From the IMG/VR virus record IMGVR_UViG_3300009169_000020, positions 7,017 to 71,016 of that record: a stretch of DNA of 64,000 nt; one strand, given 5' to 3'. A program made the position numbers and the translations under genes. Positions 16,518-64,000 of the stretch are shown in pieces; position 1 is the first letter of the stretch, and each line of letters begins with the position of its first letter. Under the pieces are notes generated by a model. It searched no databases and was not told the origin of the DNA. It saw nothing but the letters and a program-made list of their open reading frames with translations. This DNA is from a virus.

Positions 16518-16617
16518 TATTAAAAGTATCACAAAATTAGAAGAAAAGGAAATTGTATATGATATTGAAACTGATATAGATCATTCATTTTTTGGTAATA
16601 ATATATGTATCCATAAT
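16504..16617 (+). mobile_element. Split intein C-half (38 aa)
   Basis: Blocks F/G VYDIETDIDHSFFGNNICIHN with Ser+1. Confidence 0.9.
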
Positions 16618-36751: not shown

Positions 36752-37070
36752 TGATCAATTATATTTTGAAATTCAACGGAGAGGATTTCAATGGTCCAAA
36801 AACTCTACATTGGATGATACAATTTCTTCAATGCTTTTTGATGCAGATCCTAATACAGCAGTACCATCACACTCAGATGGGGAAGATAAACTAATTAGTA
36901 TGTTAATCGGAAGTACATTTATGCAAAGTGCTGGTGTATTATGGCTTAAAACTATTATGCCAAATACTTGGATAAGTATAAGTGGTGGAAGTAGTTTAAC
37001 TCAACTAGATGGTGGAGCAGCAGCAAGTATATATTTAATCTCACAAGTTTTAGATGGAGGAGGAGCATAA
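36738..37070 (+). CDS. Small virion protein
   Basis: LDGG repeats; immediately before the fibre gene. Confidence 0.5.
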   Translation: MSLNNDQLYFEIQRRGFQWSKNSTLDDTISSMLFDADPNTAVPSHSDGEDKLISMLIGSTFMQSAGVLWLKTIMPNTWISISGGSSLTQLDGGAAASIYLISQVLDGGGA

Positions 37071-37071
37071 T

Positions 37072-40000: not shown

Positions 40001-43000
40001 CAACATTATATCCTCATACTATTACTGATAGTGTTACATTAAGTGGTATATTAACTGTAAATGAACCAATTCAATTAGGATTAACTCCAACAGTAGGAAC
40101 TCATGGAACTGGTGGGAAAATGTTCTGGGATGCAGCTTGGAAAACTCCAGCTTGTGAACTTGAAGATGATGTCACTTTACAAATAGGTCAAGAAACAATG
40201 GCCTATGTATATAATGGAACCGGTTCTCAACTAGTACAGGGTAATGTAGTTTATATCTCAGGAACTCAGGATGGTATTCCCTCGGTATCTTTGGCAAAAG
40301 GGGATACTGAAACTACTTCAAAAGTTTTAGGTGTTATTACCTCTCTTACAATAGATGATACAAGATATGGCTATTGTACAGTTAGGGGTCATGTAAATAA
40401 AATAGATACTTCAGCTTGGAATCTTAATGATGAACTATATCTTGATGCCTCTATTGCAGGGGCGTTAACAAATATAAAACCTAATACTGGTTCATATGAT
40501 ACAAGAGTTGCAAGAGTAATGTTGAAAGATGCAGTTAACGGAAGAATCTTTGTAAATATGGTTAGGGAGTATTCTTTCTCAAGTGCATCAGCGGGATCAG
40601 CAGTAACAATGTTTCCTGATGATACAACAATTATAGCATCTGGAACACAATCAACTTATCCTATTAAAACACTTTCAAAAACACCTGTAACTACAACAGA
40701 GGATGTTGATTCAATTATATGTACAGCGGCTACTTCCCCGGTTCTTTATGGTACATACCTGAATACTGCTGCAATAGGTAAAACTCTTATTGATGGTGGT
40801 ATATGGAGTTTTGAAATATGGGCAGGAGTATCTTCTGCGGTAAATGTAACATCTATTACTCAAGGTGTTTATAGGGTAAGACCTGAAATAGGTACAATTA
40901 CAACTACAGGTACATTAACAACAAGAACAGCAACTGCTTCTACTGGAACACCTTTTGCAACTGCTAAAATAGATGTAGGAGGAACGAGTGACTCAGATTC
41001 TTATCTACAAACAACAACAGGATTTTTCAGAATACTATCTAGAGTTTCTGATACAGAAATTACTATAGAAACTCCTACAACATATACTAACCAATCAGAT
41101 GTAGCCTATTCAGTACATAAAAAATTATTTAGTGTTAATACAGGGGAGATAAACAATACAGCAACTTCTCCTCTATTCGCAGGATTACAACTTTATACTG
41201 TAACTTCAGCTCAACCTTCATTTACAGTAGAAACAACGGATACATTAGCTTCTGCTTTTTTTGGAGTATCTGATGGTAGTAGAACTGTTTATTTTGCACA
41301 TAATGGTACTGCAAGATATTCTCATTTTACTACCCCTCTTATAGCTCTTCATAATGATTTAGCAGGTTTACAAGGTGGAACAACAAATGAGTATTACCAT
41401 ATAACTTCTGCACAAGCCACAGTGGTTGCTAATACGAGTGGTACAAATACAGGTGATAATACTTTTTGGAGTGGTGTAACAAAAATAGGAAATGCCGTAT
41501 CCAATGATCTTATTACAGGTAAAGCAGGTGGTCAGACTATTTATGGAGGTACTCTTACAACCGAGAATCTAACTATACAGCCTAATAAAGCTGATACAAC
41601 AACAGGATCAGTGATAATAGATGCTGGTACACAATGTATGAATACAGTTACTGGGGCTTTACAAGTAGCTGGTGGTGTTGGAGTTGGTGGGGATTTATAT
41701 GCTGGTCATATTGTAGCACAAGGAGCGGGGACTCCAGCCGGTCTTTCAAATGTAATGCTTCAGTCATGGGATTCAACTGATAGTTGGGTTCAAAATAATA
41801 TACAAAATTTAAGTAATGGAAATTCAGCCTCAAGTGATTGGATTGCTACTGCTGATAATGGTTCTGATACTACAAGATTTATAGATATGGGAATAAATAG
41901 TTCAGGATTTTCAGGGGTTCCTTGGACTATCAATGGACCTAATGATGGTTATCTTTATACAAATTCAGGAGTATTGTCTATAGGTACAGCTACTGCTGGA
42001 AAAGATTTAACATTCTTTACAGGTGGAACACTTGCAGCTAATGAACGTGCAAGGATTACTTCAGCAGGAAAATTTAGTATAGGTACATCGTCTCCAACAG
42101 GTAAGTTTGAAGTATTTAAAGCTGAAAGTTCTGAGCTTATAATAAATCAAGTTGATAGGGATTTTTCAGGTGCTAATAACTGGACAGGGACTAATTGGAC
42201 TACTTCTGGAGGTACACTTGTCCACACCGTAGGCTCAACAGCCAATGCAATTCTTGCAAATGTAAATTTGACTTCTGGATCAATTAAAGCCGGTAAGAGA
42301 TACAAAATTTATTTTACAGTAGCTGGAAATACTGCAGGAACTATTATACCTAAGATCGGCTCAGTAAACGGAGCTACTGTGAGCGTTACTATGGGTGCTG
42401 GAAATTATATGTCAGCCATAACTGCTGCTGTGGACGATACTTATATAGCATTTCAACCAACCTCAACTTTTGATGGATCAATAACAAATATTAGTGTTAT
42501 AGAGCAGGGAGTAAAATTTCAGATAAATGAAGCTGGAGACTTGTTGCTCGGATCTTCGGCGTTCGTCACCGGAAATATTGATTTTGTAAAAGAGGGAAAT
42601 GCTCAAGTATTTGAAATGTCTGACTATTATGATAACAATACATCAAATGTAATTAGGTCTATAAAATACAGAGGGACTATCGCAAGCCCAAAGGCGGTTC
42701 TTGACTCTGATACTCTCTTCAACTTTCAAATGGGTGCTTATGATGGAACAGCTAGAGCTGCAAACCAAGCTGGCTTCGGATCATACTCAAGTGGTGCATG
42801 GACTCCAACAAATCATGGAACATATATTAGATTTACAGCAACACCATTAAACACAATAACATCTGCAACAGTAGCCGAATATCATGGGGACAAGATTTAC
42901 TTAGCAAAACCAGTGGGTATTGGAGCAGGAAAATCATCACCAACTAGCCAGATAGATGCAACAACAACTGTAAATGATTCAACTATTGCTTCAAAAGGTT

Positions 43001-50038: not shown

Positions 50039-50320
50039 TTGAAAAAATATGAACGCAAATTTGAAGAATCTCTTAATATAGATAATTTAATTGAAACCAT
50101 TGAATTAAAAGAATCTTGTTCTAATATTGCTGCAACATCATTTGAATCTTTTTATAATATAATAAATATGTATAAAGAATTAGAAAAAGAACAATGTGAA
50201 GATAAAAAAAAGATACTCAGAAAATTAAAATGTCTTCTTACAGATTTTGTAACCATAGATTCATTAATTTCAAAAAATTTTGATTATAAAGGCATAGCTG
50301 GTTCTCATTATAGAATATAA
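50039..50320 (+). CDS. Putative internal head protein (leader MKKYERKFEE)
   Basis: TTG start; TACTAATA at 50014. Confidence 0.55.
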   Translation: MKKYERKFEESLNIDNLIETIELKESCSNIAATSFESFYNIINMYKELEKEQCEDKKKILRKLKCLLTDFVTIDSLISKNFDYKGIAGSHYRI

Positions 50321-50428: not shown

Positions 50429-51172
50429 ATGTTCGGTATTATTTATAAAGCAACAAATATTATTAATAATAAATGTTATATAGGACAAACTATAAAATCA
50501 ATAGATGCAAGAATTTCTGAACATTATAAAAATGTATCCCGTAACAATATAACATATTTTTATAATGCTATTCGTTTATATAAAGAAGAAAATTTTATTT
50601 GGGAAATTATTGATGAAGCTTCTTCTAAAAAAGAGCTAAATGAAAAAGAAAAAGAATGGGTTTGGCTGTATAAATCAAATGATGCTTTATATGGGTATAA
50701 TATGACTGAGGGGGGTAATGGGGGAGCTACAAGAATAGGCAGACCTCATACAATAGAAACTAAGCAAAAAATTAGTCAAATACATAAAGGTAAAAAAAGA
50801 TCACCATTATCTGAAGAAACAAAACAAAAAATTAGTGATTCAGAAAAAGGTAGAATACCTTGGAATAAAGGAATGGAATATTCAGAAGAACAAAAACAAA
50901 AATTATGTCATGGACCATTTTCAGAAGAACGTAAAGCTAATATGAAAAATAAGAGTGGAGTTAATAATCCTTTTTATGGAAAAACTCATTCAGATGAATG
51001 GAAGCTTAATAAAAGTAAAAATCATCATAATAGGAGAGATGATATAACTATAGATAAAATATTAGACTTTATAAATAATGGATTATCGATAAAAGATATT
51101 ATGAAAGAATTAAATTGTAGCTATAAAGTAATATATACTAGAATGAAGGTATTTAAAAATGAAGCGATATAA
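50429..51172 (+). CDS. GIY-YIG homing endonuclease with NUMOD3 repeats
   Basis: GIIYKATN..NNKCYIGQT...GYNMTEGG; HTIETKQKIS, SEETKQKIS, NPFYGKTHS. Confidence 0.88.
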   Translation: MFGIIYKATNIINNKCYIGQTIKSIDARISEHYKNVSRNNITYFYNAIRLYKEENFIWEIIDEASSKKELNEKEKEWVWLYKSNDALYGYNMTEGGNGGATRIGRPHTIETKQKISQIHKGKKRSPLSEETKQKISDSEKGRIPWNKGMEYSEEQKQKLCHGPFSEERKANMKNKSGVNNPFYGKTHSDEWKLNKSKNHHNRRDDITIDKILDFINNGLSIKDIMKELNCSYKVIYTRMKVFKNEAI

Positions 51173-51590
51173 AAGATATTTTGAAGAAGAAAATTCTACT
51201 AATAATTTAACAGATATTAAATTAACAGAAAATTTAATTAATTTTATTAAAGAAAACCCCTTTCCAAAAGATGAAATTTTGCATAAGTTCGCAGAAGATA
51301 ATGGTTATGAGCCGGATCTTGTAGAACAATATGCTTATGCCTTTCTTACGGTTATAATCACAGGAGGAAAATCTAAAGGGAATACCTCTAAAATAACCGA
51401 AGATCAACTTAAAATAGGATTACAAATAGAAAAAGAACATGTAGAACTTGATAAAAAATATGAAGATAATAAAGTCATAAAAGCTATTCAAGAAATATAT
51501 GAAACAAAAATATCATCTGATCATTATGCTGAAAATAAAACGTATTATGATCAACAATTATTTAAGGACGAATTAAAAAAAGAGGCTTAA
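51159..51590 (+). CDS. Putative internal head protein (leader MKRYKRYFEE)
   Basis: QLKIGLQIEKEH...ISSDH..E..TYY (DUF5661-like pattern). Confidence 0.6.
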   Translation: MKRYKRYFEEENSTNNLTDIKLTENLINFIKENPFPKDEILHKFAEDNGYEPDLVEQYAYAFLTVIITGGKSKGNTSKITEDQLKIGLQIEKEHVELDKKYEDNKVIKAIQEIYETKISSDHYAENKTYYDQQLFKDELKKEA

Positions 51591-51596
51591 ATAATT

Positions 51597-51875
51597 ATGA
51601 AAAGATATAAAAGACAATTTATAGAATCTAATATAGAGGTAACTCTTTGTTATGATACAACCAAAAGACTATTTTATATATGTACAAGTTGTGGTAACAC
51701 TTATTTTCATAATGATTTTAAAGGTATGGCTAAAGTACTTAATTATATGGAAGTAAACTGTCTTCATACGGATTCAAATGATCCTAAAGAAATACTAGCT
51801 AAAGTATTAGAAATGCCGCATAAATTAGATATACATATTGATCCAGTTAATTTTAGAAAAAATGCACAACTATAA
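51597..51875 (+). CDS. Putative internal head protein (leader MKRYKRQFIE)
   Basis: Leader. Confidence 0.6.
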   Translation: MKRYKRQFIESNIEVTLCYDTTKRLFYICTSCGNTYFHNDFKGMAKVLNYMEVNCLHTDSNDPKEILAKVLEMPHKLDIHIDPVNFRKNAQL

Positions 51876-51897
51876 TATATAATAAAGGTGAATAATT

Positions 51898-52128
51898 ATG
51901 AAAAGATACAAACCAGTCTATAAAATAAAAGAAGATGCGGAAGAGGATAAATCTTTAAAAGCTATAAAAGATTTAATAGATATGAAATCTATTGATACAG
52001 AAGAAGAACAAGGTAAATTTATGGCTCTTATTAAAGGTCTTATATTTGCAGATAATAAACATGGAGATGAATTTCTTAAACAGATTAATGATTTTACATC
52101 AAGTCTTAAAATAGAAGATTTTAAATAG
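51898..52128 (+). CDS. Putative internal head protein (leader MKRYKPVYKIKE)
   Basis: Leader; weak similarity to 52136-52402. Confidence 0.6.
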   Translation: MKRYKPVYKIKEDAEEDKSLKAIKDLIDMKSIDTEEEQGKFMALIKGLIFADNKHGDEFLKQINDFTSSLKIEDFK

Positions 52129-52135
52129 GTATTTT

Positions 52136-52402
52136 ATGAAAAGATACAAAAGACATTTTATAGAAGATGATCTAAATAGTACTCCAGAATGGTATGACAA
52201 AAAGATTAATGGTCTTATAAGAGTACTTAGAGACGAATCATTTGCCTCAGAAGATCAAAGAAAAAAAATGATTGATATACTTTCATCATTATTAAATTCA
52301 TCCGATAAAAGAGCTAGATTATTATTTAAAAAAATTGGTGAACATCTTACAGAAATTGGTGATGAAATTCTAAAATATGGACAAGAAGCAAAAGAGGGCT
52401 AA
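52136..52402 (+). CDS. Putative internal head protein (leader MKRYKRHFIE)
   Basis: Leader. Confidence 0.6.
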   Translation: MKRYKRHFIEDDLNSTPEWYDKKINGLIRVLRDESFASEDQRKKMIDILSSLLNSSDKRARLLFKKIGEHLTEIGDEILKYGQEAKEG

Positions 52403-52458
52403 TGAATAGATATAGAACATTACAGGAACAAGCTAAAGCAAAGGGGAAATTACTTTAA
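52402..52458 (+). pseudogene. 18-aa truncated copy of the prohead protease N-terminus
   Basis: MNRYRTLQEQAKAKGKLL* vs MSRYRYLEDKAKLKGKIL (11/18 identical). Confidence 0.65.
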
Positions 52459-53327
52459 TGAATACTGAATTTATATCTGGTCTTTATGTAAAGTTTGACG
52501 ATGTAGTGAAAACTAATATTCATGGTATCATTTATATTGCTTTAAATACATTAAACAATAAATGTTACATAGGCCAAACTAAGCTTGATTTAAACACAAG
52601 AAAATCTCAACACATGAGACCACAGTGCAAAACATATTTTAGTTATGCATTAAAAAAATATAATGATAATTTTATATGGTCAATTTGTGATATAGGATAT
52701 TCAAAAGAGGAACTAGATATCAAAGAAAAGTATCTAATTAACCATTACCAAAGTAACAATAAAGATTTTGGTTATAATTTAACTTCTGGTGGTGATGGTA
52801 GATGTGATTTTAAACATAGAAAATCCTCTAATGACCAAAGAGCTTTATCTAATAAAAAATATTATACTGATTTATTCTATAAAGAGTATAATGTTAAATC
52901 TATACTAGATTATATGGAAAATAATGAGGTTACCTTTGTTGATTGTGCTATACAATTCAATTTAAAACCCAATAAATTAAAAAATTTTTTCAGAAAAGAA
53001 TTTCTTGATTTATATAATTTTTACTTGCAAAGAAGTGAAAAATTGAGATGCAAAAGAACTCAAAAGGGATTATTAGCTAGAGAGTTTGTTCCTAAAAAAA
53101 TAAATGTGGATATAAATGTAATACTAAAATTATTATATGTATGTAATTCCTTTATAGAAATAGCTAATAAATTAAATGTAACCTCAGGAATTATTAAGAA
53201 TAGATTGCAAGAATATAATATGGAACTTTATAATGATATAGTTAAAAAATATATTAAAATAAGAAATATAAATATTACTAATAAAAGGTACGGAAAAGAT
53301 TTAATTGGTATATCAGAGGTATTATGA
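52458..53327 (+). CDS. GIY-YIG homing endonuclease
   Basis: GIIYIALN..NNKCYIGQT...R...E...GYNLTSGG; C-terminal HTH-like repeats. Confidence 0.85.
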   Translation: MNTEFISGLYVKFDDVVKTNIHGIIYIALNTLNNKCYIGQTKLDLNTRKSQHMRPQCKTYFSYALKKYNDNFIWSICDIGYSKEELDIKEKYLINHYQSNNKDFGYNLTSGGDGRCDFKHRKSSNDQRALSNKKYYTDLFYKEYNVKSILDYMENNEVTFVDCAIQFNLKPNKLKNFFRKEFLDLYNFYLQRSEKLRCKRTQKGLLAREFVPKKINVDINVILKLLYVCNSFIEIANKLNVTSGIIKNRLQEYNMELYNDIVKKYIKIRNINITNKRYGKDLIGISEVL

Positions 53328-55288
53328 GTAGATATAGATATTTAGAGGATAAAGCAAAACTTAAAGGGAAAATTCTTCTTATAGAGAATGTATCTTTGCA
53401 TATAGATTCAAAAAATATAGAAATATTTGATAAACCTCGGATAATAGAATCAGTAGATAATGGATCATATACTGCAAGAGCTATAATAAAGAATGTTCCT
53501 GTAAGCAAATTTACTGAGAATTTAAACGGTAGAATTTATAATAAGCAGTTAGATGAACGTATTATAAATAATGGATTAGCAGAAGGTAATTTATCATTAG
53601 CTGATCATCCAGAAGATGATGGATCTATAACTAGAATTTGTGGTGTATGGCATAATCCTAGAATGGATGATAAATATTCTTATGGAGATTGGTATTTAGT
53701 TGGAGATCATGGGCAACTCATATTAGAAACAATTAAAGCCGGAGGAAAAATAGGTGTAAGTCGAGTTGGGTTTGGAGAAATTTTAGAAGATGGTAAAACA
53801 GTTGATCCAGATTCATATGAACTTCAAAGATATGGGGATGCTGTAGTAAACCCCTCCCAAGAAGTTTTTGCTACTTATGAAAATCTTACTGAGAATATAT
53901 CTGAATCTATACAAAAAGATATAATAAAAGAAATTATTATAAATGAAAAAAATATAATTGAAAATAAAACTACTAATATATTAACAAATGTATTAGAACA
54001 AAATGAGGTAAAAAACGATATGTCAGAAAAATTTATTGAAGCTTCTTTAAGAATGCAGGTAAAACAATTAATTAAAGAAGCTGAGAACAGCACTATGCCT
54101 GTTGATTCTATAAAGGATCTTCAGGAAGTTTTGAAGACTGTTCCAGCTACTATGGTAGAAGATATAGTTAAACTAGAAAATACTATATCTAAACTTCAAG
54201 AAAAAATTGAAGTTGAAAAAGTTCTTGCTCAAAAAGAACTTAAAGAAAGTAAAGAAACACTCGAATCACTTTCTAAAAAATACGAAGTTGCTAATCAAAC
54301 CATAGAAGGTATGAAAAAACAACTCGAAAAAGCTAATACTCTAGTTGAAAAAGCTGTTAATCCAGACCTAGAAAAAAGTATCAAAATGATGGAAGCTGAT
54401 CTAAGTCAATTTACCAAAGACAGACCTCTTATGGAAAATGATATCAAATGCCTTACAGAAAAAATAGCTATCAAAGAAGCTGAACTCAAAGCTTTTGAAG
54501 AAGATACTATTCTTAGAGATAAAGACATTGCTAAATTCAAAGAAGAAAGAAAAGCCCTTAGAAAAAAAGTATCTGTATCAGATAAAGCTCTTAAAGAAGC
54601 TGAAAAACATATTTCAGATCTTGAAAAAACTCTTAAAGAAGATTTTGGGTATGACTTCGATGATGAAATGATAGATGACTCTATGGAAGATGAAGATGAA
54701 ATCTATTCAGATGAAGATCTAGCCGATTATGATTATATGGAAGATGAAGGTGGTCTTACTGGTAATGGAGATATAGATGACTATATGTTCGTTGAAGAAG
54801 ATGATGAAGACAAAGATGAAGAAGACGATAAAGTAGAAGAAGCAGATGATTCAGAAGATGATGATAAAGAAGAAATCGAAGAATCTGACGACGAAGACGA
54901 CAAAGAAGAAGTAAAAGAAGATGACGAAGATGATGATAAAATGGCAGCTCTAAGAGCTAAAAAAGAACAAGCTCTTCGTAGAAAAAGAATAGAACTTAAA
55001 AAACAAGAAGATGCTAAGAAAAAAGAAGTTAAACCAGAAATCAAAAAAGAATCTAAATCTAAAGTTGTAGAAGCTGTTCAACAATATTATATGGAGTCTA
55101 TTAGAAAAACTCCTGCAATCAAAGATATCAGAAGTTCTATTATGAGTTCAACTTCACTCTCTGAAGCAATAGAAAAAGTACAAAGATTCAAATCAAAAAG
55201 ATTCGGAAATGATATGCTAAAACTAGACGAATCATCTAAGAAAAAAGATCAATACGTAGATTACAAATTTGATATAAACGAAGACTAA
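53324..55288 (+). CDS. Prohead protease (T4 gp21-like) fused to an acidic coiled-coil scaffold
   Basis: NLNGRIY, LADHP, IGVSRVG.G, DAVVNPS; long coiled coil and D/E-rich tract; directly upstream of the capsid gene. Confidence 0.85.
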   Translation: MSRYRYLEDKAKLKGKILLIENVSLHIDSKNIEIFDKPRIIESVDNGSYTARAIIKNVPVSKFTENLNGRIYNKQLDERIINNGLAEGNLSLADHPEDDGSITRICGVWHNPRMDDKYSYGDWYLVGDHGQLILETIKAGGKIGVSRVGFGEILEDGKTVDPDSYELQRYGDAVVNPSQEVFATYENLTENISESIQKDIIKEIIINEKNIIENKTTNILTNVLEQNEVKNDMSEKFIEASLRMQVKQLIKEAENSTMPVDSIKDLQEVLKTVPATMVEDIVKLENTISKLQEKIEVEKVLAQKELKESKETLESLSKKYEVANQTIEGMKKQLEKANTLVEKAVNPDLEKSIKMMEADLSQFTKDRPLMENDIKCLTEKIAIKEAELKAFEEDTILRDKDIAKFKEERKALRKKVSVSDKALKEAEKHISDLEKTLKEDFGYDFDDEMIDDSMEDEDEIYSDEDLADYDYMEDEGGLTGNGDIDDYMFVEEDDEDKDEEDDKVEEADDSEDDDKEEIEESDDEDDKEEVKEDDEDDDKMAALRAKKEQALRRKRIELKKQEDAKKKEVKPEIKKESKSKVVEAVQQYYMESIRKTPAIKDIRSSIMSSTSLSEAIEKVQRFKSKRFGNDMLKLDESSKKKDQYVDYKFDINED

Positions 55289-55540: not shown

Positions 55541-56998
55541 ATGAAACACGGAAGACAAACTCAGTCTCCAGAAAAAATGCAAGAAGAAGTTATGAGACTT
55601 TATTCCGATAAGTCCAGACTCGGAGAAGCACTTGCAAGTAAATGGGGCAAAACAAAACTAGTTGGACCAGAACTCGCTAAAATAGCAGAATCTAATCCTA
55701 AAAAAGCTGGAAGAGCTTCTATCGCTCTTAACAACCAAGAAAAAGTTCTTAAAGCAATAATCAAAGAAAATGTATATTCTACAACTTTTGGTTCTTCTGT
55801 AAAACCAGAACATATGCTCAAAGCAGTATTCCTTGGTGCAGCTAATTCTCATAGAGGTGATATCTTTACTGAATATCCTCTTACATCTACAGATGATGCA
55901 CTTTTCTATATCCAAGCTACTTATGAGCAATCCTTAAGAGGAGCTACAGCAGGAGCAAGATCATACGAAAGTGTTAAACCATACTACTCTGGAGAAGAAT
56001 ATTATGGTTCAGTTGGTACAGGTACAGGAGCACAAACAGCTTTCACTTCTGCTGCAATGTCACCTCTTCCTCTTATTCCTTGGTCAGTTAGAATCACTGT
56101 TGCTGGAGCTATTGTTGCTCAAGATAATGGTTCAGGTACTCTTGTAGGTACTCTGCTTAATTCAGCTCTTACAAATACCATAGTATATGCAACTGGTGTT
56201 GTTACTCTTAACTTTACTGCTGCTCCTGCACTTAATGCAGCTATAGCAGTTTCTTATCAGTGGAACTCAGAGGACGCTTCAAACTATAGTTCTTATGGTA
56301 CTATGGCACTTGAACTTACTAAAACCCGTTTTAATGCACGTCCTATGCCTCTTGGATATAGAATCTCTGATATGACTCAAATCATGTTTGAAACAACTGG
56401 TCTTGGAGATGCTAAAGATTATCTTGCACAAGCAATTGCACAAGAACATTCAAGAGCAAGAGACTATAGAGCTATTGCAAGAGCAAGACAAGTTGCACTT
56501 TCTAATGCTACAGCTACATTTGATACAGACTTTGCTGCTGCTGGTGAGATCAGTTATAAATCCCATGCACAGAGACTTTTAAATGAAATTGAAAGAGTTG
56601 GTGCTGTAATTTATGATGATATTAAAAGAGGCGGGATTACTCAAGTTGTTGCTGGTGCTAAAGCCACTACTTATGCAAAAAATCACGATCTTTGGGTAGA
56701 TGATAATTCAGAAGGTATTACTAAGAATGGTCTTTATAAATCAGGCAGACTTTCTAATATTGATGTGTATACTTGCCCAGCAGATAGTTCACTTGTTGCA
56801 ACTAACGAAATGATGATTGTATATAAGAATCCTACAGAAGGACTTGATACAAGTATAGTATTCGGAAATTTGGCGGAGATCGACAGTTCTCTAAGATATC
56901 CTAACTTTGTAACGGAAGGTAATAGCGCAACTATTGAGGATGCGAAAGTAACGAATGCAAAATTTGTAAGACTCCTTACATTATCTAGTTTAGTTTAA
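55541..56998 (+). CDS. Major capsid protein (T4 gp23-like HK97 fold)
   Basis: Position after the protease/scaffold; propeptide with AxxLxNQE; strongly biased codon usage; two TACTAATA upstream and a terminator downstream. Confidence 0.8.
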   Translation: MKHGRQTQSPEKMQEEVMRLYSDKSRLGEALASKWGKTKLVGPELAKIAESNPKKAGRASIALNNQEKVLKAIIKENVYSTTFGSSVKPEHMLKAVFLGAANSHRGDIFTEYPLTSTDDALFYIQATYEQSLRGATAGARSYESVKPYYSGEEYYGSVGTGTGAQTAFTSAAMSPLPLIPWSVRITVAGAIVAQDNGSGTLVGTLLNSALTNTIVYATGVVTLNFTAAPALNAAIAVSYQWNSEDASNYSSYGTMALELTKTRFNARPMPLGYRISDMTQIMFETTGLGDAKDYLAQAIAQEHSRARDYRAIARARQVALSNATATFDTDFAAAGEISYKSHAQRLLNEIERVGAVIYDDIKRGGITQVVAGAKATTYAKNHDLWVDDNSEGITKNGLYKSGRLSNIDVYTCPADSSLVATNEMMIVYKNPTEGLDTSIVFGNLAEIDSSLRYPNFVTEGNSATIEDAKVTNAKFVRLLTLSSLV

Positions 56999-57022
56999 TC
57001 TTTAAAAAATATTTTTAAATTT

Positions 57023-57050
57023 AAAAGCCCCTTTAATTAGGGGCTTTTTT
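57023..57050. terminator. Bidirectional terminator at the strand switch
   Basis: AAAAGCCCCT-TTAATT-AGGGGCTTTT between convergent genes. Confidence 0.8.
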
Positions 57051-57689
57051 ATTATCACTAAAATAATCATATAATGAAAAATCAACTTCTTTCATACCCT
57101 CTCTCATCATTTCTAATACTCCAGAAAAAGGGTCATATTCTTCTGCTATAATTGGGAATATTTCTATCAAATCTTTTGACTCTACCCATTTTATTAGTGA
57201 ATTAGCTATAATCTCTCTTACATATTTATTAGATCTATTATAATCACTTATAAATTTTCTTATTCCTAGAATACAAAAATTAGCTGGTAATAATGCTTTT
57301 TTATCTATAAATCCATGAGAATAATTATTGTTAATTTCTACATCTTCATAAGATAAATTTAATTCTTCTAATAACTCACCAAAATAATTAAATAGCGTTC
57401 CTCCATCTAATTGAATAAAATAAGGTATTCTTATTACTCTATTATCTTCCTTTAAATCCAACCATAAAGCATCTTTATATATATCGCGTAATATAGTAGA
57501 TGTATCTGTATAATGTCTATATCCATCAAATTCTACAAGATATTTATCATTAATAACTAGATCACCCCTGTATCTTTGTCCTATTTTCACATTAACTTTA
57601 ATATCTATATTAACATGATACTGAAGTTGCTTAAAAATATCTATCATTTTTTTCTCTGTCAAATAATCTTCATATTTAAGTATTATCAT
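57033..57689 (-). CDS. PD-(D/E)XK nuclease-like protein (Vsr/DUF559-like)
   Basis: YRGDLVI...LVEFDGYRHY...RD...IRIPY. Confidence 0.65.
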   Translation of the reverse strand: MIILKYEDYLTEKKMIDIFKQLQYHVNIDIKVNVKIGQRYRGDLVINDKYLVEFDGYRHYTDTSTILRDIYKDALWLDLKEDNRVIRIPYFIQLDGGTLFNYFGELLEELNLSYEDVEINNNYSHGFIDKKALLPANFCILGIRKFISDYNRSNKYVREIIANSLIKWVESKDLIEIFPIIAEEYDPFSGVLEMMREGMKEVDFSLYDYFSDNKKAPN

Positions 57690-57721
57690 TATTTTTTTTC
57701 CTTTGTTAATTTTTTTGTAAA

Positions 57722-58072
57722 TTATATTTTTTTAATAGAAAGCATAAAATCTGTTGTATCAAGAAATTCTGCTTGATTATAATATTCTATTAACTTCTCG
57801 GAATTTCTAGTAATAAATTTTATAATATTTCTTTTTTCTTTACTGGATAAAGTTAAATTCTTTTCTTCTATAATTTTAATATTATTAGCATTAGATGTAA
57901 TAGAGAATTTAATAAATTCAAATTCAGCTTTTTTAACATTATGTACATAATGAATATGTGGAAAATTGATATGTCTTTCTTCTGGTCTAATTTGAATAGT
58001 CCCTTCCTCTATACCAGAATATTTTGGCATTATATTTGCCATTTCAAAGAGTTTTCTTTTATATCTATACAT
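57722..58072 (-). CDS. DUF4160-like protein with leader MYRYKRKLFE|M
   Basis: MANI.P..SG...H..PHIH...N.EKLIEYY; AGGAG RBS. Confidence 0.6.
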   Translation of the reverse strand: MYRYKRKLFEMANIMPKYSGIEEGTIQIRPEERHINFPHIHYVHNVKKAEFEFIKFSITSNANNIKIIEEKNLTLSSKEKRNIIKFITRNSEKLIEYYNQAEFLDTTDFMLSIKKI

Positions 58073-58104
58073 TTAATTTTCTCCTTCTTCCTTATTTTTA
58101 AAAA

Positions 58105-58524
58105 CTAAAGTTTTCCAAGTTCTTCTGCTTTAATATTTAATAACTTACCTATGTATTTAGGAGCATTAAATTTATGATTTTTTAAAATATTTTTTATTCG
58201 TACAATTTCTTTATATTGAGATTCTTTTATAAATCCACATGTAAGTACTCCACATAAGGAAGCTAAATATGATTTTATACTTCTCATATCTTCAGTTGAA
58301 GTAGAGTAGTCTATAGTATAACTTATCCTCATACAACTTTTAATCATATTCATAATATCATTATGTTGTTTAATATCAATTTTAAAATAAACATAAATTT
58401 TACATAGTGATTTATCACTTAGATTTTTATTATAAGAACTAGCAATTTCAACTTTAGATATTCTATTATCCATCATTATACCAAATATTTTTTCTCTGGG
58501 TATTATATAAGATTTTCTTATCAT
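58105..58524 (-). CDS. Hypothetical protein
   Basis: AAGGAG RBS and an upstream GTTTAC promoter. Confidence 0.6.
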   Translation of the reverse strand: MIRKSYIIPREKIFGIMMDNRISKVEIASSYNKNLSDKSLCKIYVYFKIDIKQHNDIMNMIKSCMRISYTIDYSTSTEDMRSIKSYLASLCGVLTCGFIKESQYKEIVRIKNILKNHKFNAPKYIGKLLNIKAEELGKL

Positions 58525-58575
58525 TGTTTTTCTCCTTATTGAATCATTTTTTTAACTACTTATTAGCTATATACA

Positions 58576-58608
58576 ATATACAAAACATATATAGAAAAGT
58601 AAACAACT
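58576..58608 (-). promoter_or_regulatory. Second promoter class GTTTACT...TATATT
   Basis: GTTGTTTACTTTTCTATATATGTTTTGTATATT; near-identical copy at ~63791-63820 (-) and a related one at ~62715-62748 (-). Confidence 0.6.
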
Positions 58609-58827
58609 TTTTTCTATTTTTTCAAAAAAAGTGGTTTTTATTTTAATACAAAAAAGCTTATAAATAATTATATAAATTTATATATCTATGTTTAGCTTCT
58701 TAATTTTTCTACTTCTAGTATAGTGCTTTTACATAGAGGACAATAAGAAGATTCTATCTTACTTAACCAATTATGATTACATTCACTACAAGTATGATCT
58801 ATTGCCTTGACTGTATAATCTTTCTTT

Positions 58828-59034
58828 TCATTTGCCATTGTTATATCCCATAGTAATAGATTGTCTTATTACATTTTCATCTGAATAATCTAAAGTCATT
58901 TTAGATGGAAAACAGTTTTTATAAATAGTAACTTTACCATACCTCTTAAAAAGTAAATTACTTATTTTATAGGGTAAATAGTTAGCTATTTTATACATCC
59001 AAGTGTATTTATAATTTGTAATTTGTATATCCAT
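58828..59034 (-). CDS. Hypothetical protein
   Basis: GAGG RBS. Confidence 0.45.
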   Translation of the reverse strand: MDIQITNYKYTWMYKIANYLPYKISNLLFKRYGKVTIYKNCFPSKMTLDYSDENVIRQSITMGYNNGK

Positions 59035-59072
59035 TATTATACCTCTTATGGTTTTTTAGGTGGTTTACTAAT

Positions 59073-59270
59073 TTACTTTTCTATAAACCATTTACAATTA
59101 TTATTTTTATTTATTTCGCTCGGTTCTAAATCATATGTATATACTATACTTTTCCAAGTATATTCAATTTTAGTATTAGAGGGGGATTTACAGAAATATT
59201 TTGTAGGGTATCCAAATTTAGGTTGTTCTACAAAATATTTACAGTTATCACAGCATACTTTATCATTCAT
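59073..59270 (-). CDS. Small Cys-rich protein
   Basis: CDNCKYF...C...NNNCKWF. Confidence 0.55.
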   Translation of the reverse strand: MNDKVCCDNCKYFVEQPKFGYPTKYFCKSPSNTKIEYTWKSIVYTYDLEPSEINKNNNCKWFIEK

Positions 59271-59271
59271 T

Positions 59272-59463
59272 TTATATCATCTCCACATTAAATTTAAATA
59301 CTTCCCAACCTTCTTTCTTACTCTGACTACTTAGAGTGTAATTATAATCACCATAGTTTCTTTCATTGAATAATCCTATTGCTCCCTCTTTAGTTACATC
59401 TAGCAACACTGCTTTCATGTCATCTTTAAAATCTTTATGAACTACCCCATACATTATTGTCAT
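59272..59463 (-). CDS. Hypothetical protein
   Basis: Packed in the minus-strand operon. Confidence 0.5.
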   Translation of the reverse strand: MTIMYGVVHKDFKDDMKAVLLDVTKEGAIGLFNERNYGDYNYTLSSQSKKEGWEVFKFNVEMI

Positions 59464-59834
59464 TTTTTTACTCTTGCTCCTATAAGTAGTTTTGCTTTAT
59501 CTAACATAAAATCTGGTATCTCTACGGTAATATATTTAGCTTCCTTTTTCTTAACAAATATTCTTCCTTCTGGTTCAAACCAACCATTATTATCATCATA
59601 GTCATCTACTACCTTTGTTTGAACACAAAAACCATTTACATTTAATATAGTAAAGTCTTCTTCTTTTATACTATCTAATGTCCTTATATTGATACTATCA
59701 GAATCACCATAACCATCAAACATATACATTGAAGATGATATAAGTACATCCCCTTTCTTTATTTGTTTTTTAAATGATTTATTATAATCCAGTTCTATCC
59801 AACCTCTTTTAGTTAATTCCTCTATAGTTTTCAT
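59460..59834 (-). CDS. Hypothetical protein
   Basis: Likely start MKTIEE via ATGA overlap. Confidence 0.55.
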   Translation of the reverse strand: MKTIEELTKRGWIELDYNKSFKKQIKKGDVLISSSMYMFDGYGDSDSINIRTLDSIKEEDFTILNVNGFCVQTKVVDDYDDNNGWFEPEGRIFVKKKEAKYITVEIPDFMLDKAKLLIGARVKK

Positions 59835-60169
59835 TTCTCTACCCCCGTTCCATAGCATGAATTACATGTATCATCTTCATCTATTTGATAACAATCTAAT
59901 ATTCCAGTTCCATTACACACAGAACAATCATTAAATACAAAAGTGCATTGTCCTACTTGTTCTACCACTAGTTTTTCACCATAACATTTAGGACAAGTAA
60001 TTCTTTCTTTAAGAACTTCTTTGGCTAACAGTATAGGACAATCTTGTTTATGAGTATCATTCTTTTCCTCACATATGAAACATTTTCCTGTACCATCATT
60101 ACATACAAGCATAGTATCAAGTAAGGCTTGAGCTAATTTCTTTATTATTTCATCTTTACTTAATTCCAT
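59831..60169 (-). CDS. DnaJ-type CxxCxGxG zinc-finger protein
   Basis: CPKCYG, CSVCNGTG, CNSCYGTG. Confidence 0.6.
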   Translation of the reverse strand: MELSKDEIIKKLAQALLDTMLVCNDGTGKCFICEEKNDTHKQDCPILLAKEVLKERITCPKCYGEKLVVEQVGQCTFVFNDCSVCNGTGILDCYQIDEDDTCNSCYGTGVEK

Positions 60170-60171
60170 AA

Positions 60172-60420
60172 TTATTTATCCTCTATATGCGTAAATTTTC
60201 TTCCATGATTAAATCCTCCAACATATGTTGAATCAATAATATATTTAAGTGCTTTCATACCGAGCATAAATGAATGCATAATTGCTTCTTGAGTTTCTTC
60301 CGTCCAGCATTTCTTTTCTACATCCCATATATTATATTGTTATCCATCAGGCATAATAATCCATATAGCAATCTTACCCTCCCTGTCTGTTGTAAAAAAC
60401 TTTGGCTCATATTCTTTCAT
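60172..60420 (-). pseudogene. 82-codon ORF interrupted by one in-frame TAA (60340-60342)
   Basis: MKEYEPKFFTTDREGKIAIWIIMPDG*QYNIWDVEKKCW...EDK*; AAGGA RBS; fills the gap exactly. Confidence 0.5.
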
Positions 60421-60422
60421 AA

Positions 60423-60602
60423 CTATTTATCCTTTAATATTTGTTTTAGAATATTATCAAAAGTCATTTCTGATATAGTTTCTAATTCTTTTATACAAGC
60501 ATCCCAACCATCTATCCAATTAGAGCGATTTGGTGTTATTATTAAAGATGGCTTTTTATCCATTATAACTCTTTTACGAATATTGAATTCTTGTTTATTC
60601 AT
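60423..60602 (-). CDS. Hypothetical protein (59 aa, not in the ORF track)
   Basis: MNKQEFNIRKR...WIDGWDACIKEL; ATGA overlap. Confidence 0.55.
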   Translation of the reverse strand: MNKQEFNIRKRVIMDKKPSLIITPNRSNWIDGWDACIKELETISEMTFDNILKQILKDK

Positions 60603-60919
60603 TTCAGAATACCTCTCTCTATAAGAATATTAGCAACTTCTTCTAATACTTTTTCATCTTGAATTAAGTTTTCTATTTGATCTTTAAGAATTTTCTTTCT
60701 ATTTAGTTCTTGATAATACTTTAATGTATCATATATTTTTTCAAATGATCCATCAAAAAATGACATCTCTGGTCTGATATTATGGGAGTAAAAACGATAA
60801 CTAGAATCATCTAAATGATCTTTGTCTAAATATACAGTTATTCCAATATTATAAAATTCTTTTATAATATTTTTTATTTCGCCTATTGTAGTATTATCAG
60901 TTATAACTTGTTTATTCAT
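60599..60919 (-). CDS. Hypothetical protein
   Basis: GGAGGAG RBS. Confidence 0.55.
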   Translation of the reverse strand: MNKQVITDNTTIGEIKNIIKEFYNIGITVYLDKDHLDDSSYRFYSHNIRPEMSFFDGSFEKIYDTLKYYQELNRKKILKDQIENLIQDEKVLEEVANILIERGILK

Positions 60920-61097
60920 TTGAACTCCTCCATAATAAAATTATTAAATTAACTACCATCATAAATCCATTGAGTAGTACAAATGAAATATTATTATAAA
61001 ATGCACATATACACATTGCTATAAAACTAATCATTATTGCTATTATCGTTATCCACATATTATTATATCCCCATATTTTAATTGAATCTTCTATCAA
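60912..61097 (-). CDS. Small two-TM membrane protein
   Basis: Two hydrophobic segments. Confidence 0.5.
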   Translation of the reverse strand: MIEDSIKIWGYNNMWITIIAIMISFIAMCICAFYNNISFVLLNGFMMVVNLIILLWRSSNE

Positions 61098-61248
61098 TTC
61101 TTTTTTCTACATGTTGATTATCTTTCTTCTTTTCTTTTCTGAAGCCCCTTACATAAGCAACTAATTCCATATCTTCCATATTATTTTTGAAAGCCTTTCT
61201 AAAATTTTTGATTTGAATTTCCTGTGCTTGTGTCATTGTTATTTCTCC

Positions 61249-61434
61249 TTATTTTATTTTTAAAAAACTTTTAATACCATGTTCCCTTTTATAATTATCT
61301 ATTGCTTGTCTGACTAATTCTAGTCTTACTTTATCATCTCTTTTTATTATTTCTTTATTTATATTACATTTAGAATCATTACATAATGTTTCAAAAGAAT
61401 TAAGACATATATAATAGTGAATACATTTTTTCAT
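61249..61434 (-). CDS. Small Cys-rich protein
   Basis: First gene after the minus-strand promoter copy at 61458-61488. Confidence 0.5.
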   Translation of the reverse strand: MKKCIHYYICLNSFETLCNDSKCNINKEIIKRDDKVRLELVRQAIDNYKREHGIKSFLKIK

Positions 61435-61494
61435 TTTTAATAATTCTTCCTATATCTATAATATAATTAAAAAATTTTAAAAGTATAATTTTTT

Positions 61495-62124
61495 TTAGTT
61501 TAGTTCTAAATTATATCCATTATTATTCATGAATTTTTTATAGTTATCTTTTATTCTATGTATTATATGTACCACTTGAATTCTATTTACAAGTTTTGCT
61601 ATTTCTTTATATGTTTTACCTTCTTCCAGAAGATTCCATATAATCATTTCTGATTCTTTTAGAGTAGCTTTAAAGTCTTTTACTATAAGAGCAAATACAG
61701 TTTCTTCTTCATGTGATTCTACTTTTCCATCTATAAGTACTTCATTATCATTATGATCTTTTTGATATATAGAAACTATATTTTTTTCAATTTGTTTATT
61801 AAAAGATTCATAGCTATTTGTATTGAAATAGGATGTTAAATGTTGTTTAAAAGTAACTCCAAAAGAGTATTGAGCTTGATTGTGTGTTTTCTGAGGATTA
61901 ACATACTCAAGAGCTTTAAGCATTATTAAGTAGCACTCCTGCATATTATCTTCGTATGAAGCTTGTGATTGATATCGTCTTGATATAACATTACAGAGAG
62001 GATAATATTTTTTATACAGATAGGCTTCAATACTAGCTCTTGTTCTATAATGTTGGTTTATAGTATCCGACCATTTTTCTATTACTTCCAAATCTGTTAG
62101 ATGATTGAATGTTTGTTTTTGCAT
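61495..62124 (-). CDS. Sigma-70-family RNA polymerase sigma factor
   Basis: LYKKYYPL...YEDNMQECYLIMLKALE...SF (region 2); LKESEMIIW.L..EGKTYKEIA (region 4 HTH). Confidence 0.75.
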   Translation of the reverse strand: MQKQTFNHLTDLEVIEKWSDTINQHYRTRASIEAYLYKKYYPLCNVISRRYQSQASYEDNMQECYLIMLKALEYVNPQKTHNQAQYSFGVTFKQHLTSYFNTNSYESFNKQIEKNIVSIYQKDHNDNEVLIDGKVESHEEETVFALIVKDFKATLKESEMIIWNLLEEGKTYKEIAKLVNRIQVVHIIHRIKDNYKKFMNNNGYNLELN

Positions 62125-62170
62125 TTCTATTTCTCCTTATTTAAATTATTTTTTAAATTAACTCAGCATT

Positions 62171-62488
62171 TTAATCATTCAATAATTTCCAAGCAAATAA
62201 AATAGCTTCATTATTTGTCATTTTTTCATTTTTTAAATTTTTTAGATTTAACCAAGTTTTTAACTGTTTTATATCTGACGAAGATATTTCTTTTCCATTC
62301 TTCTGCCATTTATAAGAAATTACTTCTAAAGTTTTAAAATCTATTCTTACTTCATAACAATCCTTCTTAGTAATATGAAAATGAACTGGAGCATGATCTG
62401 TATAAACCTCTATTTTTAGATCCTTAATTATTCCTATTGAAGCCATTTCAAAAAATGGTTGATATCTTTCACATTGTTTTTCTTTCAT
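62171..62488 (-). CDS. DUF4160-family protein, type B (leader ..CERYQPFFE|M)
   Basis: IEVYTDHAPVHFHI...W; AAGGAG RBS; AACTAATAA upstream. Confidence 0.7.
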   Translation of the reverse strand: MKEKQCERYQPFFEMASIGIIKDLKIEVYTDHAPVHFHITKKDCYEVRIDFKTLEVISYKWQKNGKEISSSDIKQLKTWLNLKNLKNEKMTNNEAILFAWKLLND

Positions 62489-62524
62489 TTTTATTTCTCC
62501 TTTAATTATTAGTTTATCCATATA

Positions 62525-62686
62525 TTAAATTATATTTTTTATCGCTTCTACTACTAGTTCATAACTAATACCACATTCTGATAATCTAATAAAAGGTATT
62601 TTATCTTTATTAAATTCAAAAATCTGGGATGTTTCAGTGTCTATTAAATGTATTTTATTTCCTTCAAATCTTTCAGCTACTAACAT
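62525..62686 (-). CDS. Hypothetical protein (53 aa, not in the ORF track)
   Basis: MLVAERFEGNKIHLIDTET...; AAGGAG RBS with its own promoter. Confidence 0.5.
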   Translation of the reverse strand: MLVAERFEGNKIHLIDTETSQIFEFNKDKIPFIRLSECGISYELVVEAIKNII

Positions 62687-62756
62687 TTTCTTTCTCCTTA
62701 TTTAATTTAATGTTACTGTAATTTATTGCTTTTAAAATGTAAACAACTTTTTTAAT

Positions 62757-63077
62757 TTATTTCACTTTTTTTAAATTATCTATTATTTCATCAATAGTAA
62801 TTTCTCCTTTACCATTCCAATATTTCATTAGAGTATCTTTATTTAATTTAATCCAATCAAATATTTTATTTAATTTTTTAGCTTCAATTTTAATATTACT
62901 TTTTAATTCTGGTTCATCGGATATAGTTATAGATATAAATTTATTATCTATTTTTATTTTAATTCTAGCTGAATGTTTCTCCTTACCTGATTGGGGAGCT
63001 ATCCATACAATATAATCTAATCCAGTTTTTTTTGTTGATATATTTGACATCTCATATAAGCTTTGATATCTTTCCAT
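62757..63077 (-). CDS. DUF4160-like protein, type A (leader MERYQSLYE|M)
   Basis: MSNI..K.TGL..IVWI...KH..RIKI...WI.LN.D.L..YW. Confidence 0.65.
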   Translation of the reverse strand: MERYQSLYEMSNISTKKTGLDYIVWIAPQSGKEKHSARIKIKIDNKFISITISDEPELKSNIKIEAKKLNKIFDWIKLNKDTLMKYWNGKGEITIDEIIDNLKKVK

Positions 63078-63101
63078 CTTTGTTTCTTTGTTTCTCCTTA
63101 T

Positions 63102-63407
63102 TTAATTACTATTCATACCATCCCAAAATATTTCAATGGCATCTTTATTAGTTATATTTTTATTTTTATATTTATCTTTTAACCAACGACTGATTTTTTT
63201 AAGTTCTGTTGAAGATATTTCTGAACCATCTTTTTGCCATTTATAAGATAATATTTCCATATTTTTTAGATTCAATCTAACTTCAAATTTATCTTTTTTT
63301 GTTACATGAAAATGAGCTGGATCATGATCAGTATATACTTCTATAATTAAACCATTTATCTGACCTACTTTAACCATTTCAAAAAATTTTTCATATCGTT
63401 CCTTCAT
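63102..63407 (-). CDS. DUF4160-family protein, type B (leader MKERYEKFFE|M)
   Basis: IEVYTDHDPAHFHV; paralog of 62171-62488. Confidence 0.7.
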   Translation of the reverse strand: MKERYEKFFEMVKVGQINGLIIEVYTDHDPAHFHVTKKDKFEVRLNLKNMEILSYKWQKDGSEISSTELKKISRWLKDKYKNKNITNKDAIEIFWDGMNSN

Positions 63408-63408
63408 A

Positions 63409-63750
63409 TTATTTCACTCTTTTCATTTTTTTAAAGAAATCTTTAAGACTCATTTCCCCTTTACTATTCCAATAATCTAGTAATACTTGTTCATTCTTTA
63501 TTATCCAGATTTTAATTTGATTTAGATCTTTAGAATCTATTATATCTTTTTTAGATTTAATCATTATTTCTGGATTAGATGATATAGATATAGGAATAAA
63601 TTCATTATTAACTTCAACTTTAATTCTTGCCCAATGTTTTTCTTTTCCCGTTTGAGTTTGAATCCATATTTTATAATTTAAACCGGTATCTGATTTAGTT
63701 AGATTTGCCATTTCAAAAAAAGGTTGATATCTTTTTTTAGTCTTGTTCAT
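63409..63750 (-). CDS. DUF4160-like protein, type A (leader ..KRYQPFFE|M)
   Basis: MANLTKSDTGL..KIWI...KH..RIKV...WI.KN..VL.DYW; paralog of 62757-63077. Confidence 0.65.
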   Translation of the reverse strand: MNKTKKRYQPFFEMANLTKSDTGLNYKIWIQTQTGKEKHWARIKVEVNNEFIPISISSNPEIMIKSKKDIIDSKDLNQIKIWIIKNEQVLLDYWNSKGEMSLKDFFKKMKRVK

Positions 63751-64000
63751 TTCTATTTCTCCTTTAACTTCTTTTATTAAATCTAGTACTAATATAAAAC
63801 ATATATAAGAAAAGTAAACCTTTTTTTCACTTTTTTTAAAAAAAGTTACTGTTTTTAATTTAACATATATAGGAGAAATTTGTATTAAAATTTTAGTATA
63901 AAATATGACAAATAATTATAAACAGATAATAGATGATAAATATTTTAATCTTGATGCAGATGAACGTAAAAAGATATATGAGTTATATTTTAATAAGGAA

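Follow-up and report, generated by a model that had tools for sequence, protein, structure and literature searches.

The capsid targeting sequence of bacteriophage T4, MKTYQEFIAE, is carried by internal head proteins that are described as small and basic; one cut is made beside the sequence, and proteins of any kind are retained in the head when fused to it (PMC8442874). According to PMC9026906, its residues 4 and 7 chiefly set targeting and residues 8 and 10 set processing, and the prohead protease gp21, which itself bears an N-terminal LIE-9, cleaves after L/I-X-E. A further paper portrays the internal proteins of T4 as a diverse counter-defence set whose sole common part is the targeting sequence (PMC3012670). 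Processing after Glu by gp21-type proteases has also been reported for ejection and inner-body proteins of giant phages (PMC5694885, PMC9026906). Here we describe a 64,000-nucleotide (nt) stretch of viral DNA (the window; bases 7017-71016 of the 71,016-bp linear contig of IMG/VR record IMGVR_UViG_3300009169_000020), in which five minus-strand genes at 57722-63750, named A1, B1, A2, B2 and C, code for DUF4160-like proteins that open with a short leader resembling the T4 sequence.

DUF4160 has been presented as an effector domain that lacks a confident structural homolog and is usually followed by a DUF2442 gene (PMC12065111). DhiT of Dickeya dadantii 3937 is a growth-inhibiting DUF4160 protein counteracted by the DUF2442 protein DhiA (PMC8198452), and NsnC of the Menshen anti-phage system is described with a C-terminal DUF4160 effector domain (PMC12065111). 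A preliminary description of this locus had stated that DUF4160 usually pairs with DUF2442 and that DhiT belongs to DUF4160, and the two papers report both points; it had also called DhiT an RNase toxin, and the terms RNase, ribonuclease and endoribonuclease are absent from the DhiT paper (PMC8198452). Judged by titles and abstract openings, none of the papers listed by a literature search on DUF4160 is about phage virion cargo. With DhiT/DhiA and cellular DUF4160 proteins, the present genes share PF13711 matches (B1, B2, and A2), the DHxPxHFH motif (B1 and B2), single-domain size, and an equivalent start Met. They differ in being phage-borne without DUF2442, in their added, cleavable-looking leader, in forming five paralogs, and in the loss of two His from the A-type. 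Menshen NsnC, as described, likewise uses this domain family as an effector module; however, NsnC is a host defence protein, whereas the phage version described here is a single domain that follows a capsid-type leader and has no PADLOC match.

Sequence comparison, predicted structures, and analogy together lead us to a probability of roughly 0.6 that the five proteins are T4-style internal head proteins that are ejected from the virion and carry a DUF4160 (DhiT-toxin-like) mature domain. The consensus leader of the window, M(K/E)RY(K/Q)xFFE, has Tyr4, Phe7, and a hydrophobic-x-Glu end, corresponding to the T4 determinants. As with IPI, IPII, IPIII, and Alt of T4, a short leader with aromatic residues at positions 4 and 7 is common to otherwise unrelated small basic proteins, the gene for a predicted gp21-fold protease adjoins the capsid gene, the protease bears the leader itself (as gp21 bears LIE-9), and the cargo set varies among related phages. 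Unlike the T4 system, this one is without sequence similarity to T4 proteins and known from sequence alone; its protease is fused to a scaffold-like tail, and its cargo fold is DUF4160, with no T4 protein among the fold-search matches of B1. The giant phages phiKZ, 201phi2-1, and SPN3US are also described as removing N-terminal propeptides from many head proteins, after a short x-x-Glu, by means of a diverged gp21 homolog. Their propeptides are, however, reported to be mostly longer than 100 residues and to end in S/A/G-x-E, whereas the leaders here are T4-like, 8-14 residues long, and belong to a genome of about 155 kb.

The source is a myophage, as its tail sheath gene (34409-36064) matches phrog_15433 (E 7e-126). 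The contig is about 46% complete (CheckV) and also codes for anaerobic ribonucleotide reductase, DNA polymerase, RNA ligase, and several GIY-YIG homing endonucleases; the guanine-plus-cytosine (GC) content of the window is about 25%. No close phage was found in GenBank, where 18 kb of the window, searched by megablast, had only chance-size matches of 33-37 nt. A search of IMG/VR with the capsid protein yielded seven related loci (69-74% identity), one of them in a complete relative of 155,573 bp with terminal repeats (G001), by which we judge the genome size of the clade to be about 155 kb. In G001, a homolog of the small open reading frame (ORF) x is followed directly by an A1-like and then by a divergent B-like gene, and an A2-like gene lies elsewhere. 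Because the related record G002 (about 50% complete) has no PF13711 match, the DUF4160-like gene set is regarded as accessory and variable among relatives.

Five DUF4160-like genes and their leader junctions

The preliminary description had listed five minus-strand ORFs, each with a leader ending in E followed by M, and their order (A1-B1-A2-x-B2, with C apart), coordinates (Table 1), and junctions are all as it had them. The leaders are 9-14 residues long and follow the pattern (E/K)RY(Q/E/K)x(F/L)(F/Y)E, then Met, giving the junctions FFE↓MANL (A1), FFE↓MVKV (B1), LYE↓MSNI (A2), FFE↓MASI (B2), and LFE↓MANI (C), where the arrow marks the putative cleavage site. The proposed kinship to DUF4160 was checked with the PF13711 profile: B1 (31.6 bits), B2 (24.0), and A2 (23.8) pass the cut-off of 23, and C (21.7) and A1 (11.2) do not. 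A six-frame scan of the contig with the same profile returned exactly these five places and no others. Phmmer ties A1, A2, and C together, B1 to B2, and, weakly, A1 to B2, and profiles of A-type (15 sequences) and B-type (26 sequences) homologs align by hhalign with 93.6% (E 2.2e-7, 99 columns, shared leader included). By these comparisons the five ORFs are real paralogs related to DUF4160 (PF13711).

As previously described, the B-types keep DHxPxHFH and the A-types have KHxxRIK in its place (individual motifs in Table 1), so that two of the three His are lost and one is kept in A1 and A2. In C, the corresponding motif comes after a 6-residue insertion. The C-terminal helix of the B subfamily ends in a TN...W..xN pattern, as in phage-type homologs. 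If cut after Glu, the mature forms would be 91-106 amino acids (aa) and 10.7-12.6 kDa, with a computed isoelectric point (pI) of 8.8-9.7. Orthologs of B1 keep the leader, and the A2 ortholog in G001 reads MENERYQKFFE↓M. Searches of PHROGs, NCBIfam, and PADLOC yielded no meaningful match for any of the five proteins or for x, and no GenBank phage homologs of A1 or B1 were found by tblastn at E ≤ 0.01. The B-type alignment took 20 of 28 short entries inspected from a representative-library search with B1; this search listed 96 matches, of which most long ones were multi-stretch low-complexity matches, and long proteins were left out. Two database homologs, P0040 (251 aa) and P0050 (267 aa), have two B-type DUF4160 domains in tandem, and an internal ..QE↓MAHIG junction precedes the second copy in P0050. 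This junction suggests polyprotein-like cargo cut at internal sites.

An antitoxin-like partner, which the preliminary description had not seen, did not emerge: a search for DUF2442 (PF10387) came back empty at E ≤ 10 both for the 71-kb contig and for the complete relative G001 (155.6 kb), and the neighbour x belongs to no Pfam, PHROG, NCBIfam, or PADLOC family. A homolog of x lies upstream of an A1-like gene in the relatives G001 and L009.

In A1, B2, and C, the start codon of the leader follows a recognizable ribosome-binding site. The Shine-Dalgarno sequences of A1 (AAAGGAGA) and C (AAGGAG) are 8 nt upstream of the first ATG, and the second ATG of A1, B2, and C has no comparable one. The longest ORF of B2 opens at 62521; 62488, as given in the preliminary description, is the better start because the Shine-Dalgarno AAAGGAGA stands 8 nt before it. 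The start of B1 is 1 nt past the stop of A1, and the last 24 nt of leader-coding DNA are nearly identical between A1 and B2.

Conservation at the junction extends to homologs. All 15 A-type homologs have E and M there (E13 and M14 in A1 numbering), and 13/15 have hydrophobic-x-Glu; the two exceptions are entries from contigs shorter than 600 bp that start ME↓M (ME↓MANL). Among 26 B-type homologs, P1 is Glu in 23, hydrophobic-x-Glu is present in 22, and Met in 20, and one homolog (P0094) starts at the junction Met without a leader. We also compared the junction with cellular proteins by scanning bacterial genomes for a degenerate DHNPPHFH motif, which gave at least 120 loci with 121 motif sites. 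Among the matches listed, a start codon lies exactly 17 codons before the motif Asp at 101/121 sites and within 16-18 codons at 105/121, and the cellular DUF4160 starts typically read MPEISRFYGI... The junction Met of B1 and B2 lies 16 codons before the motif Asp. Because of this spacing (16 codons against 17 at most of the bacterial sites listed), the sequence argument that the junction Met is the position where cellular DUF4160 proteins begin is well founded.

The predicted fold of B1 opens at the same residue. An AlphaFold2 (AF2) model from a 26-row alignment (predicted local distance difference test, pLDDT, 92.6) has five strands and two helices; residues 1-10 are unstructured and not packed on the domain, and the first strand (11-17) opens at the junction Met. 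The claim of a native Met behind the Glu thus agrees with both codon spacing and model. The preliminary description had the leader fused in front of each Met; the junctions bear this out, but five separate fusions are not needed. One ancestral fusion followed by duplication is simpler, because the E-M junction is common to A-type and B-type homologs. Its further suggestion that the leader keeps the proteins inactive finds no support, as the leader in the B1 model is a tail off the domain.

Foldseek matches for the B1 model number 0 in PDB and 0 in BFVD at E ≤ 1e-3, and no solved DUF4160 structure was found. A function for B1 was also sought from its fold with VIA-align and rejected, the best hit (Z 5.2, to p32/gC1qR) being within the noise range of the tool. 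As a lead, the ESM Atlas model of A1 itself has a template-modelling (TM) score of 0.73-0.77 to clusters in which 10-38% of members match PF13711.

A phage-wide N-terminal signal and a predicted prohead protease

The leader is not confined to the DUF4160-like genes. A six-frame motif scan of the window placed the peptide at the extreme N-terminus of otherwise unrelated ORFs, 17 in all by the union of a looser and a stricter pattern (Table 1), with lengths of 8-14 residues. Within the first 18 residues, the strict pattern occurs in 15/109 non-overlapping ORFs of the contig and in 15/247 ORFs of G001, where its internal frequency would give 0.38 and 1.02, respectively. Related phages bear the leader on partly different, variable proteins, and the leaders of orthologs on other contigs vary in length and sequence and keep the peptide motif. 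Since the residue after Glu in carriers other than DUF4160 is D, E, or S, not Met, the leader is translated rather than an artefact of a second start, and these sequences identify it as a shared N-terminal signal.

One of the carriers is a 654-aa protein encoded directly upstream of the major capsid gene. Its N-terminal region (residues 1-210, aligned with 47 of 53 homologs collected to give 48 sequences) has invariant H95, S146, and D172. The AF2 model of this region (pLDDT 80.5; predicted TM score, pTM, 0.74) has only three Foldseek matches against the PDB at E ≤ 1e-3, the chains A-C of T4 gp21 (5jbl; E 2e-7, probability 1.00, TM 0.69-0.71 by target, about 172 columns), and the next match is at E 0.3. 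Leads in the ESM Atlas for the domain are Peptidase_S77/S80. By sequence, the protein or its protease domain has no match in Pfam, PHROGs, or PDB sequences (phmmer), the PF03420 profile finds nothing in the contig or in G001, and tblastn against 50,697 GenBank phage records gave no match. The homologs (515-785 aa) are common in metagenomes, with 53 found, and none carries a Pfam annotation. On the predicted structure, the phage encodes a gp21-fold prohead protease fused to a scaffold-like tail.

The presence of this protease bears on the earlier claim of cleavage after Glu, which is plausible because the phage has a gp21-fold protease (Foldseek E 2e-7) and gp21-type proteases cut after Glu. 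The major capsid protein has an (L/M/I)GE↓A sequence near residue 29, in which G28, E29, and A30 are invariant in 7/7 relatives, and this conserved sequence is a plausible maturation site.

We infer packaging, cleavage after Glu, ejection, and an activity of the mature proteins, as follows. Translation would begin at the first ATG, and the 9-14-residue leader would work as the T4 capsid targeting sequence does, its aromatic residue pair binding the scaffolding core of the prohead. Once the shell is assembled, the scaffold-fused gp21-like protease would cut past hydrophobic-x-Glu and release a small basic protein opening at the Met where free-living DUF4160 proteins open. The mature proteins would be retained in the head until they pass into the host together with the DNA. 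An antitoxin would be superfluous, as the cell that makes the proteins is doomed in any case. Judged by their motifs, B1, B2, and C, which keep a His-rich motif, are the likelier active forms, and A1 and A2, which have lost two of three His, may be non-catalytic.

Gene neighbourhood

Each of three units with DUF4160-like genes is headed by a copy of a promoter-like repeat (A-tract, GTTGTTTAC, TATATT-like box); a search for the repeat gave six matches at up to 3 mismatches, against 1.5 expected. A scan of 57000-64000 for the sigma-70 consensus was uninformative in this AT-rich DNA (60 sites, 62 expected). Directly downstream of B2 lies a sigma-70 region-2-like gene (61495-62124; PF04542 E 9e-4, below cut-off; phrog_1740), whose position is conserved in G001. 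The capsid gene and the minus-strand block converge on a strong GC-rich hairpin (57023-57048) that is flanked on either side by T-runs and probably serves as a bidirectional terminator.

The leader ORFs of the head module form a run that is split by a GIY-YIG homing endonuclease gene (50429-51172). The four tandem small ORFs at 51159-52402, between two such genes, all open MKRYK and may code for core proteins or more cargo. By its weak match, the 400-aa leader protein at 31171-32373 may be a packaged nuclease-type protein.

Elsewhere in the window, GIY-YIG homing endonuclease genes at 36065-36751, 50429-51172, and 52458-53327 are inserted in the tail and head modules. The DNA polymerase is apparently split into ORFs at 13330-15273 and 16504-17571 with a homing-endonuclease-like ORF (15456-16517) between them, and a transposase-like gene (20744-21988; phrog_506, E 3e-51) lies inside the replication region. 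A 2933-aa ORF at 37054-45855, whose sole match is an N-terminal tail-fibre one, has a GC content of 31-38%, compared with about 25% elsewhere.

Table 1 Coordinates of the DUF4160-like genes, leader-bearing ORFs, capsid gene, and promoter-like repeats in the window
Feature	Coordinates	Strand	Length (aa)	Leader	Remarks
Leader ORF	19306-19689	+	127	MKRYKPYKFE	
Leader ORF	28000-28833	+	277	MKRYKSYFLE	
Leader ORF	30320-30541	+		MTKRYKSFFKE	
Leader ORF	30889-31170	+	93	..MQRYEPFFE	Directly upstream of 31171 ORF
Leader ORF	31171-32373	+	400	MERYKPFFE	Weak ParB-like nuclease match, phrog_1033, E 8e-6
Leader ORF	34084-34395	+	103	MKRYKSQIQKE	Directly upstream of tail sheath gene
Leader ORF, head module	50039-50320	+		MKKYERKFE	
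Leader ORF, head module	51159-51590	+	143	MKRYKRYFE	
Leader ORF, head module	51597-51875	+	92	MKRYKRQFIE	
Leader ORF, head module	51898-52128	+	76	MKRYKPVYKIKE	
Leader ORF, head module	52136-52402	+	88	MKRYKRHFIE	
654-aa protein	53324-55288	+	654	MSRYRYLE	Predicted gp21-like prohead protease domain at about 1-180; coiled coil and acidic scaffold-like tail
Major capsid protein	55541-56998	+	485		phrog_1014, 1.2e-18; weak tblastn match to annotated major head protein
C	57722-58072	-	116	MYRYKRKLFE (58072-58043)	Divergent copy; domain from Met11; RHINFPHIH
Promoter-like repeat, near-copy	58578-58632	-			Upstream of 139-aa ORF and C
B2	62171-62488	-	105	MKEKQCERYQPFFE (62488-62447)	DUF4160 domain from Met15; DHAPVHFH
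x	62525-62686	-	53		ORF without leader, between A2 and B2
Promoter-like repeat, near-copy	62735-62764	-			Upstream of x-B2-sigma-like unit
A2	62757-63077	-	106	MERYQSLYE (63077-63051)	A-type domain from Met10; KHSARIK
B1	63102-63407	-	101	MKERYEKFFE (63407-63378)	DUF4160 domain from Met11; DHDPAHFH
A1	63409-63750	-	113	MNKTKKRYQPFFE (63750-63712)	Met codon 63711-63709 opens mature-type domain; KHWARIK
Promoter-like repeat	63792-63846	-			A-tract, GTTTACT, about 16 nt, TATATT; upstream of A1-B1-A2

Alternative explanations and significance

Several observations weigh against the reading of the five proteins as ejected cargo. The five genes sit outside the head module, among small early-looking genes beside a sigma-like factor and behind sigma-70-like promoter repeats. 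About 14% of ORFs bear the capsid-type leader, a large share, and some of these proteins may belong to the core or scaffold and be broken down, not kept. P3 is mostly Phe, Leu, or Tyr here, compared with Leu or Ile in T4, whose targeting sequence also has one residue more than the leader. The protease assignment rests on predicted structure, as PF03420 detects nothing in the contig or G001; A1 and C fall below the Pfam cut-off for DUF4160; and the fold is without a solved relative, so activity is not readable from structure. Finally, the contig is a fragment of an uncultured phage, about 46% complete, and the evidence consists of sequences and of models derived from them.

The leader could instead target the prohead core, with the DUF4160-like proteins acting as structural or DNA-condensing parts, degraded or charge-neutralising, that have no effector role. 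This would fit the presence of the leader on the protease-scaffold protein and on small head-module ORFs resembling core proteins, the basic mature forms (pI 8.8-9.7), and the absence of two of three motif His from the A-types. However, DHxPxHFH is complete in B1 and B2, the characterised member of the family is a growth inhibitor, and the set varies among close relatives as accessory cargo would, with G002 (about 50% complete) lacking PF13711 and others having other leader proteins; we therefore consider a purely structural role unlikely, if deserving of attention. A different use of the A-types, in which a degenerate A protein neutralises or regulates B as a toxin-antitoxin-like pair that replaces DUF2442, packaged or not, is quite improbable in our judgement. 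It would account for the 1-nt spacing of A1 and B1, for the A1-like gene followed by a B-like gene in G001, and for the failure to find DUF2442 in the contig or G001, but A2 has no B gene next to it, whether in the window, where x intervenes, or in G001, and both types bear the same leader.

Two further explanations concern the leader itself. The early-looking region behind sigma-70-like promoter repeats, the leader on some 14% of ORFs, and the near identity of A1 and B2 leader DNA over its last 24 nt would be expected if the proteins acted in the infected cell without being packaged, their N-terminus being a degradation, timing, or localisation tag or a 5' coding cassette that spread by recombination and resembles the T4 sequence. 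Head-module ORFs and the gp21-fold protease-scaffold protein nevertheless bear the same leader, its determinants match the mapped targeting and processing determinants of T4, and the junction Glu is kept (A-type 15/15, B-type 23/26), leaving this explanation little credence. Still less can be said for translation from the second Met with the upstream "leader" as a conserved untranslated RNA or DNA element, which we regard as very improbable. The junction Met is indeed widespread (A-type 15/15, B-type 20/26), and two database entries start ME↓MANL; yet the Shine-Dalgarno sequences of A1, B2, and C stand before the first ATG and not the second, leaders vary in length and sequence with the peptide motif kept, and the same peptide occurs on proteins without a following Met.

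Co-folding of the mature parts of A1 and B1 from their own alignments, run without controls, scored 0.00 against a mark of 0.32, which counts neither for nor against an A1-B1 complex.

The reading as ejected internal head proteins thus retains part of the preliminary interpretation: the DUF4160 kinship, the leader, the native Met, the missing DUF2442, and a plausible cleavage after Glu are kept, and an RNase activity of DhiT and inactivation by the leader lack support. Virion delivery, and with it possible roles in host shut-off or anti-defence, are what we infer from the T4 internal proteins by analogy. More broadly, and tentatively, at somewhat less than even odds, a clade of myophages of about 155 kb may run a compact T4-like cargo system, made up of a leader and a scaffold-fused gp21-fold protease and serving 15-20 proteins per genome, including antitoxin-free DUF4160/DhiT-type domains diversified into motif-bearing and motif-less forms. 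Cargo of this kind is already known from T4 and giant phages; new are the DUF4160 cargo, the compact leader in a clade without T4 sequence kinship, and the protease-scaffold fusion.

If the reading is correct, a toxin fold of toxin-antitoxin systems has been converted into injected virion cargo, and the five copies of a toxin family suggest a route by which such toxins are recruited as phage weapons. Proteins co-injected with DNA act ahead of any phage gene expression; except in T4 and giant phages, finding them is difficult unless virion proteomics is available. The leader would then be a sequence-only rule for the whole ejected-protein set of ungrown phages: together with a gp21-fold protease, it would flag candidate cargo in metagenomic sequence, about 15-20 ORFs per genome in a set differing among relatives. 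Natural variants that lack an antitoxin, some having the His motif and some not, could help resolve the function of DUF4160, and, given a host, the leader could serve as a packaging tag for protein delivery by phages of this clade.

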